The notes under the pieces: generated by a model
Told to the model about the DNA's origin: nothing
Seen by the model: only the letters and a program-made list of their open reading frames with translations
The model's database searches: none
Made by a program: the position numbers and the translations under genes
Shown here: positions 45,953 to 53,817 of the stretch, in pieces
How positions within the stretch are numbered: position 1 is the first letter of the stretch
Layout of the letters: the number at the start of each line of letters is the position of its first letter
NCBI GenBank assembly: GCA_963422365.1
Contig: OY729426.1
Location: 1,248,001 to 1,312,000 of the forward strand
DNA: 64,000 nucleotides
DNA from: Nitrospirales bacterium
Lineage (GTDB): Bacteria; Nitrospirota; Nitrospiria; Nitrospirales; UBA8639
Direction: 5' to 3'

Positions 45953-46407
45953 TCATGGCACTTTCTCATAAAACTGCTCGCAATCTATCTGGTCAACAAT
46001 AGGGTGATTCGCCATGTACTCGCGGATCTTATTGAGAGCGGCTTCATTTCGAATGACATGGTCATCATAATTGGACTGCCAATATGGAAGGGCCTAATCC
46101 CCATGCCCGCGTTACCCACGACTTGAAAACCTGAATGACTCGACCAAGCGGTTTATCCGACGATTGAAAAATAAAAATCACATGCAGGTGATTCGGCATC
46201 ACCACGATCTGATCGATTGAGACACCAGAGAAAAATCGAAGAATTTGTTCTGTTTTTTGTTGAACCAGGGCTTTGGTTTGGGGGGGGTGCAAATCGTGGG
46301 GTTCTATGCTTCGTACAAAGGGTCACAAAATGGTATCCGTTTCCACGGTAGTCATAATGACGTAATCGAAGGGGTTGGCGGTCTCGCAATCGGAAACTTT
46401 TTTCCAA
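45953..46407 (-). pseudogene. REP-associated tyrosine transposase (RAYT / Y1_Tnp HUH family), two frameshifts
   Basis: Across three frames: RLRHYDY..GYHFVTLCT / MPNHLH (HUH) ..FKS.. / WQSNYDDHVIRNE....IREYMANHP; frameshifts at the G8 run 46280-46287 and at ~46082. Confidence 0.88.
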
Positions 46408-46570
46408 TCTACTTTTCTTTTTGTCATCTGATCCAGGCATCATGTGTATAGGCTCAGAAAAGAGGCACCATGAGATGGCGCCCCTGCAATTCATAGGAAT
46501 CGGCAGCGTCTTACGCTGCCCAGGTATCAATGCGTAGCCGCCGCACCATATGCGCCCATACAGGGATGGT

Positions 46571-46672
46571 GCCGGATCCAACTCTATGTAGCGCGGGATC
46601 TCATCCCGCCTTCTTCCGGGCCGCAGAAGATGCCGCGGCTACAGGGAAAGGCCGCATGAGATGCGGCCCTAC
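46571..46672 (+). repeat. 77-bp direct repeat copy 2 plus an inverted REP GGCCGCATGAGATGCGGCCCTAC
   Basis: Direct repeat of 45870-45946, followed by a perfect family-B REP at 46650-46672. Confidence 0.85.
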
Positions 46673-52474: not shown

Positions 52475-52544
52475 GCATGTCATGAATCTGTAAAGAGGCC
52501 GCATCCCCACAGTACTTATGCGGTCAGATTCAATCTCTCTCCCG

Positions 52545-52583
52545 ATCCCCGCTGAGGTTCATCCCTCAGCGGGGATTTTTTTT
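52545..52583 (+). terminator. Intrinsic terminator of the porin gene
   Basis: ATCCCCGCTGAGG-loop-CCTCAGCGGGGAT followed by a T-run. Confidence 0.9.
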
Positions 52584-52755: not shown

Positions 52756-53274
52756 ATGAAGCACGACGCACGGACTGTCGCGAATAGTCTGATCGAGAAG
52801 GGTCGCAATGCTGGCGCCCCTCTGACTCCGTTGCAGAGTGATGAATTTTGTGCAGATGTCACGCTCGCTGAAGTCGCAATGCTGGCGCCCCTCTGACTCC
52901 GTTGCAGATCATCAAGCCGGTCTACTTCTGTCACGGCCGGATGCTCGGCTTGTATCGACAGCCGTTGATCGAACAGGATGTACAAGCGTGGCTCTATGGT
53001 CCCGTGGTGGCCGAAGTCTACCGGGAGCTAAAAGGAGATGGCGCGGGACTCCGGTCACGGCCCATATCGAGGCGCCGGAAGAGGCATTCGACGAGTTCGA
53101 AGCCGACCTGATCGGGCAGGTCTACGAGAAATATGGTCCGCTCCCAGGTATGGCCTCGTCTCAGCTCACCCACGCTTCGCGTGGTCCTTGGTTTGGCACG
53201 GGGAGGGAAAAAACTCGGTCATCCCGAATGAATTGATCCATGTGTATTACGCCGAACAGGCGAATGCTCTATGA
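52756..53274 (+). pseudogene. Panacea (SocA/GepA, DUF4065) antitoxin, disrupted by a 71-bp repeat+insert and two further frameshifts
   Basis: Reconstruction: MKHDARTVANSLIEKGRNAGAPLTPLQ|IIKPVYFCHG..PLIEQDVQAWLYGPVV / ..VYEKYG...SQLTH...PW / ..VIPNELI..YY. Confidence 0.85.
52802..52908 (+). repeat. Exact 36-bp direct repeat pair around a 35-nt spacer (single CRISPR-like unit, ectopic)
   Basis: GTCGCAATGCTGGCGCCCCTCTGACTCCGTTGCAGA at 52802-52837 and 52873-52908; spacer at 52838-52872. Confidence 0.85.
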
Positions 53275-53623
53275 ATGATCACCGACGAGATGTTTCGGAG
53301 CCGCCGGATCATCTGAGCTATCATCCCGATCCGACTAGTCTCGCCGAGTACAACGCACTTGCCACACAAATCGATCTCGAAGAAAAAACCAACAAGCACC
53401 GGCGCACCGAACAATTCCGCGACCTTTTTTCTCGTGGTATACAGGGGGTGATTGTCCTAGCAATCAGCGTGGCGGTTGTGACGTTGCTGGTGGTGGCCTG
53501 GCACCACCAGACGCCGGCAAATTGGCACTGGCTGACCGACAAGCAGCTTGCTGATCTCAGAACCTTCATCTTTAGCGGTGCAGTCGTTAAGCGCGGTGAC
53601 GAATCATATTCGACGGCACACGT
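53271..53623 (+). pseudogene. Small 2-TM membrane protein coupled to Panacea (putative toxin), apparent +1 frameshift near the 3' end
   Basis: ATGA overlap with the Panacea stop; TM-VVAWH...WHWL..KQL..L-TM; removing one A after GAVV gives SAVTNHIRRHT*. Confidence 0.55.
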
Positions 53624-53817
53624 AAGCATAGTCGGATTTTTGTGTCGTCATTCCGAATACGTTTGATTTTCACTCCGTAATGAAATGTTGTTGGAATTTC
53701 GAAGACCGGACGAGAAAATCGACTTGACCTTGCATGTTCAGGAAAGGCTGGTGTCACTGGAAACGCGGATGTCGGGCTTATGAAACTCGGACCTGAGCTG
53801 AGACGGCCTGGAAAACG

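Follow-up and report, generated by a model that had tools for sequence, protein, structure and literature searches.

What placed a short stretch of DNA between two identical 36-bp copies inside a toxin-antitoxin gene of a Nitrospirales bacterium is the question raised by the locus described here. The window (the whole stretch analyzed, 64,000 nucleotides) corresponds to C1:1248001-1312000 of a genome assembled as one contig of 2,495,695 bp.

The duplicated stretch in the Panacea gene

The features of the locus, in window coordinates, are as follows.
52544 to 52577, + strand: terminator-like hairpin 3' of the upstream alginate-export-family gene, setting that gene apart from the Panacea pair
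52756 to 53274, + strand: Panacea (PF13274, SocA-like) antitoxin pseudogene with the 71-bp insertion and two further frameshifts
52802 to 52837, + strand: target duplication, copy 1 (native Panacea codons ~16-27), repeat-like when read on the - strand
52838 to 52872, + strand: spacer-like 35-nt insert
52873 to 52908, + strand: target duplication, copy 2, same sequence as copy 1
53271 to 53625, + strand: partner gene, hydrophobic with likely membrane-spanning segments, a candidate PanT-type toxin, frameshifted near 53588

The two 36-mers are identical at 36/36 positions with a start-to-start spacing of 71 bp, which bears out the exact duplication around a 35-nt insert described in the sequence-only reading of this DNA. 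The unit can be divided as 36+35 or as 35+36, a one-base ambiguity that arises because the match of the insert to its donor continues one G further. The 71-bp insertion shifts the Panacea frame and leads to a stop after 46 codons. The duplicated stretch had been taken for native coding DNA, and protein and DNA alignments agree, the stretch being present as a single copy in homologues. In four intact Panacea homologues (72-80% identity) residues 17-27 have two alignments to the window, each in a different frame, and each of the five homologous DNA loci that aligned, of eight examined, has one copy of the 36-bp stretch. Directly 3' of the stretch the homologue flank has 12-20/21 matches to the native right flank compared with 2-6/21 to the insert. 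A same-species or same-genus empty allele was not found, with the Panacea locus matched by DNA in 0 of 40 relatives (three of the 40 match the insert only) and 0 of 600 candidates confirmed in a metagenome scan. Distant Panacea proteins of 31-51% identity occur in 6 of 37 relatives. Elsewhere in the window, the product of a yajQ-like gene shares 88-95% identity with proteins from Nitrospirales genomes.

Panacea (PanA-PanT) toxin-antitoxin pairs have membrane-targeting toxins according to the accessible text of PMC8832971. Like the pairs described there, the locus has a small hydrophobic partner, itself conserved, after its PF13274 gene, and a homologue of the partner lies 3' of Panacea in 3 of 14 homologous loci. 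Unlike in those pairs, neither gene is intact, both being frameshifted, and the partner is a candidate toxin. The further Panacea frameshifts, near 53043 and at 53180-53200, are also present in read-derived contigs, which show no differences there. The original proposal had been that the insertion inactivated the antitoxin or hit one already dying. The second alternative is somewhat favored by the other frameshifts in the gene and its partner, the first less so, and the insertion probably hit an already decaying gene pair. Invariant Panacea columns are changed at 11 of 93 positions, and the unit shows no differences between its copies or from its donor; were the insertion the first lesion, zero differences in the 107-bp unit would have P 0.004-0.07. 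This dating test is weak, with a noisy leave-one-out control in which intact homologues themselves differ at 2/65, 5/68, and 16/79 columns.

The proposal also depended on the junctions being real, and these are carried by contigs derived from three sequencing runs, both junctions in X3 and X4 and the left in X5. In X4 the depths are 72.3 and 70.9 at the junctions, 72.0 and 73.8 in the flanks, 140.8 in the repeat, and 150.8 in the insert, as would be expected of an insertion present in virtually every copy together with a single donor site. A 359-nt contig from X5, a run of a second study, spans the left junction, and the left only among the matches listed. In X3, from the same study as X4, the junction depths are 162/166 compared with 267/260 for the flanks (~62%), and the repeat depth of 320 (~1.2x flank) is a poor fit to a full or a mixed population; the dip is absent in X4. 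An assembly chimera would be compatible with the X3 depths and with a comparison that rests on contigs and no raw reads (X9 and X10 gave 0 reads from the ~1% of each run sampled), but the flank-level depth of both junctions and the doubled repeat in X4, together with the junction from the other study, leave it a negligible probability. The Panacea gene is not covered in runs X6, X7, and X8, and one of the runs may be the assembly's own source.

Source of the insert and the native CRISPR-Cas systems

The insert is identical at 35/35 positions to C1:1728878-1728912, 428 kb away on the same chromosome, and the donor is the 5' end (codons ~6-17, - strand) of an EcoAI-family hsdR gene. An hsdR paralogue at C1:701697 matches the insert at 29/35. 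As a spacer the insert would be self-derived and not phage or plasmid DNA. Outside the insert, donor and target agree for 0 nt on the left and 1 nt on the right, so that no homology is present at the junctions to guide recombination or a template switch. An isolated distant copy exists for 1,018 of 2,495,660 genomic 35-mers; once CRISPR repeats, genes for repeat proteins, and a small number of paralogue or palindrome pairs are subtracted, two type I-C self-targets and the insert/hsdR pair are left. A 7-mer common to the insert and the downstream sequence had been noted as a hint of duplication and would favor duplication in place or a chimera formed with a paralogous Panacea gene. It is a coincidence, because the insert aligns exactly to distant hsdR and not to a Panacea paralogue or adjacent DNA; this exact donor, the 29/35 match of the hsdR paralogue, and the poor fit of the homologue flanks given above refute a local origin, which we regard as having next to no probability. 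Near the truncated hsdR paralogue lies a SMODS/DncV-like nucleotidyltransferase gene (L013:3330-5020), possibly marking a CBASS-type defense locus.

Arrays and cas1 genes with a geometry of about 36 and 35 were anticipated elsewhere in the genome and are present in three systems, with repeats of 36-37 bp and spacers of 33-39 nt.
Type I-C: cas3, cas5, cas8c, cas7, cas4, cas1c, and cas2; 100 repeats of 37 bp; spacers 33-38, mode 35
Type I-G: cas8g, csb1, csb2, cas4g/cas1g, and cas2; 26 repeats of 36 bp; spacers 35-38
Type III-A: cas10, csm2-5-type genes, cas6, two cas1-like genes, and two cas2; 5 repeats of 37 bp

Cas1c and Cas4g/Cas1g score above the NCBIfam cut-offs, a cas2 gene is found in each system, and all five genomic cas1 matches are at CRISPR loci, the cas loci lying 200-530 kb from the unit. 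The duplication of 36 bp compares with native repeats of 36, 37, and 37 bp, and the insert, at 35 nt, has the length most frequent among I-C spacers (41/99). A broken cas4/cas1 fusion is located just downstream of the I-C array (L011:1711-2900, C1:883200-884600), and the III-A locus (L012:3724-6054) has the order cas2-cas1-(short cas1-like)-cas2, a doubled adaptation module. The genome also encodes three HU/IHF-family genes.

Two leader-end (cas-proximal) I-C spacers, at L041:721-830 (C1:875220-875329), match the chromosome exactly, indicating that self DNA has recently been captured in this genome; an exact chromosomal match is absent for the other 126 native spacers. One donor of these spacers is a conserved gene of an arginine cluster, presumably argG, and the other, at C1:691110, is flanked by TTC on its opposite side. 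Both donors lack an upstream TTC and a C at -1, so in these two cases the last C of the repeat is not derived from the PAM. Among the loci examined no non-self protospacer was found for the native spacers, and one of 473 I-C spacers from relatives matches G000. The hsdR donor likewise has no canonical PAM, the upstream triplet being TCC or GGC. The PAMs listed for types I-C and I-G in the accessible part of PMC8482600 are TTC/TTN. The insert begins with TTC on the - strand, a post hoc observation expected in ~1 in 32 cases by chance and given no weight.

In - strand reading with 3' anchoring, the target itself resembles the native repeats. It matches the I-C repeat at 18/37 positions, including 15 of the last 21 (0.17% of genomic windows equal it), the III-A repeat at 18/37 (0.15%), and the I-G repeat at 15/36 (2.2%). 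The likeness is modest, with a corrected value of ~0.02 after 12 comparisons, and these matches do not single out any one system. The trinucleotide CAA occupies positions 5-7 from both target ends, a post hoc observation that holds for 0.04% of 36-bp windows; the I-C and I-G repeats have it likewise at their spacer-side end. The calculated folding energy of the target is -6 to -7 kcal/mol compared with -18 (I-C), -15 (I-G), and -4 (III-A) for the repeats, and an Rfam search of the unit gave no match. A functional CRISPR array was considered and rejected, as the unit has two copies, no strong hairpin, and no adjacent cas genes. A working crRNA from the unit is unlikely because, in its repeat-like orientation, the unit runs antisense to the gene and a strong hairpin of the I-C/I-G kind is missing, which would explain how a perfect self-match is tolerated.

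Further duplications of similar spacing

A scan of the 2.5-Mb genome for isolated two-copy repeats (at least 33/34 identical, periods 45-130, outside arrays) returned seven rows, which represent five independent loci after merging two elements present twice each. Three of the five, the Panacea unit among them, have periods of 71, 72, and 73 (binomial P 0.003 for the array range of 70-75). The other two of these three are as follows.
Scar A, C1:153083 (L006:3084-3189): 34-bp duplication and 38-nt insert, in frame in a helicase-like/HTH gene
Scar C, C1:1761160 (L007:4161-4270): 37-bp duplication (one mismatch) and 36-nt insert, at the 3' end of a HAD gene

Scar A is single copy in the relatives G053 and G003. 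Scar C is inside an integrase-bearing island, its site DNA has no orthologue in 37 relatives, and its far copy and flank resemble homologue C termini, the HAD gene gaining a new C terminus. The inserts of both scars have no match in the genome, nor does that of scar C in genome_contigs or that of scar A in viral_contigs. Their repeat likeness is weak, with best values of 1.1% and 2.9% that are not significant after correction. A relaxed scan for older scars gave, among the matches listed, mostly coding repeats and REP-linked units. A 41-bp duplication with a pyrimidine-rich 40-nt insert (period 81) occurs at C1:1663325 and C1:1740118 as part of a repeated element, and a long repeat-protein region is found at both contig ends (C1:11000-44000 and C1:2448000-2482000), which may be an overlap left untrimmed or a real duplication.

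Degenerate direct repeats of ~35-40 bp with periods of 72-78 also accompany REP-like palindromes, at the following positions.
L160, C1:417764
L161, C1:754813
L162, C1:689879
L163, C1:1729033

These duplications are likely driven by REP-associated transposition. As REP palindromes also arrive with duplications of ~35-40 bp, the geometry alone is not unique to Cas1. An origin of the REP scars themselves as Cas1 products is disfavored, the units being 77-245 bp long in the cas1-less genomes G046 and G003 as in G052 (first 30 sites checked of 84, 104, and 296, respectively). Of the 38 genomes of the genus, 21 carry cas1. Two overlapping open reading frames at window 46065-46581 on the - strand, without a Pfam match, carry by eye what we take to be the motifs of a broken RAYT/Y1 transposase.

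Integration weighed against repair and transposition

Capture of a short fragment, joining of its ends to both strands of a target, and duplication of the target by gap filling follow from the established chemistry of Cas1-Cas2. Applied to the Panacea gene, an integrase would have captured a 35-36-nt chromosomal fragment from hsdR, the two 3' ends of the fragment would have been joined to opposite strands 36 bp apart in two transesterifications separated by one repeat length, and gap filling would then have duplicated the 36-bp target. The ectopic spacer acquisition put forward in the sequence-only reading is supported by the match to native geometry, the distant donor, and the contig-borne junctions, and the insertion is very probably an off-target integration by one of the genome's own Cas1-Cas2 enzymes, an assignment drawn from the geometry. 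A gene pair already in decay, and a unit that would yield no working crRNA, are the likely reasons why the scar was kept. Counting against integration are the lack of a canonical PAM, which the two self-derived I-C spacers share, the 34-bp duplication of scar A, the weak likeness of scars A and C to the repeats, the missing same-species empty allele, and the similar duplications seen with REP palindromes. Among the three systems type I-C is tentatively placed first, given the best 3'-half match and its two newest spacers being self-derived. Type I-G, with the only repeat of exactly 36 bp, is a possible but somewhat less favored source, and type III-A, which needs no PAM, is rather unlikely; the duplication is 1 nt short of the I-C and III-A repeat length, which counts against both.

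A repair event, either a template switch or end joining at a staggered break, could have copied 35 nt from hsdR and duplicated the target, and the chromosomal donor and missing PAM are what such an event would leave. It is nevertheless improbable, as the junction homology is 0-1 nt, no reverse transcriptase match (PF00078) is present in the genome, and nothing in repair fixes the unit at 71-73 bp although three of five isolated near-exact duplications are so spaced. A casposon would be a large element with terminal repeats that carries a stand-alone Cas1; this candidate was rejected as all five cas1 matches belong to CRISPR loci.

A further alternative is that a REP-associated tyrosine transposase (RAYT/TnpA-REP, HUH family) nicked near a REP and moved the fragment, duplicating the target in the process. 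The donor is 149 bp from the center of a REP-like palindrome, a proximity shared by 0.6% of random positions and noted post hoc, and on the - strand the insert begins at a C/T step, the TnpA-REP cleavage site reported in the accessible text of PMC8266576. Degenerate flanking repeats with periods of 72-78 are found at 4/59 REP-like sites compared with 7/1500 random positions, and empty alleles exist in relatives for at least two REP-linked duplications. However, insert and target contain no REP, only 1/4 parental cut sites is C/T, PF01797 has no match in the genome (three candidates, none at E<=0.001), the REP-linked duplications of relatives have periods of 77-245 with cas1-less genomes included, and the resemblance of the target to the repeats is left unexplained. 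From the part of PMC3733652 available, GTAG/CGTC REPs are reiterated together with adjacent DNA that varies in length. The systems of PMC3733652 and PMC8266576, as far as described there, are alike in producing short insertions with duplicated flanks, and REPs are present in this genome too; they differ in that REP inserts hold the palindrome and vary in unit length, whereas the antitoxin insert has none. A REP/RAYT unit was rejected for the antitoxin insertion with no palindrome in the unit and no intact Y1 transposase match, and transposition of this kind has a low probability comparable with that of repair. A coupling of CRISPR adaptation and REP biology, in which REP-side nicks would supply self prespacers, the 72-78-bp REP scars would be older off-target integrations, and Cas1-Cas2 would spread REPs, is also improbable; the donor starts at a C/T step ~120 nt 3' of a REP.

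Off-target integration by Cas1-Cas2 is known from Escherichia coli, where overproduction of the type I-E enzyme led to non-canonical spacer integration and neo-CRISPR loci (Nivala 2018, as cited in the accessible parts of 10.1101/148544, PMC7054753, and PMC11788318). The two cases share a spacer-sized insert outside an array and a duplicated repeat-like target. They differ, as far as those sources describe, in that the E. coli loci arose under laboratory overproduction, whereas the Panacea insertion is natural and at full depth in one sample; the host, a member of the Nitrospirales, carries I-C, I-G, and III-A systems, the insert matches the cell's own chromosome, and 36 bp are duplicated. In Thermotoga profunda the III-A Cas1-Cas2 without HU integrates off target in vitro, according to the portion of PMC13769266 available, a class 1 integrase other than I-E likewise using non-canonical sites; in that portion the result is in vitro only, whereas HU/IHF-family genes number three in the present genome, and clear scars likewise only three. 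The accessible text of a 2018 preprint describes natural off-target integration and array seeding as unclear, with circumstantial evidence in two species beyond E. coli. No paper documenting natural scars of such a kind was found in a search that mostly did not reach the subscription literature. What is new here is the exact hsdR donor 428 kb away.

Off-target spacer integration is an error shown in the laboratory and rarely recorded in nature, and as a natural example the Panacea unit is unusually clean: its donor is exact, homologues give the empty state, and contigs support the insertion. With three clear scars in 2.5 Mb, CRISPR adaptation would act as a low-rate insertional mutagen, which would have remodeled genes by a frameshift (Panacea), an in-frame insertion (scar A), and a new C terminus (scar C). 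The three defined target sites and three integrases provide the basis for a direct assay of specificity, and the locus bears on whether off-target integration occurs in nature and seeds new arrays.
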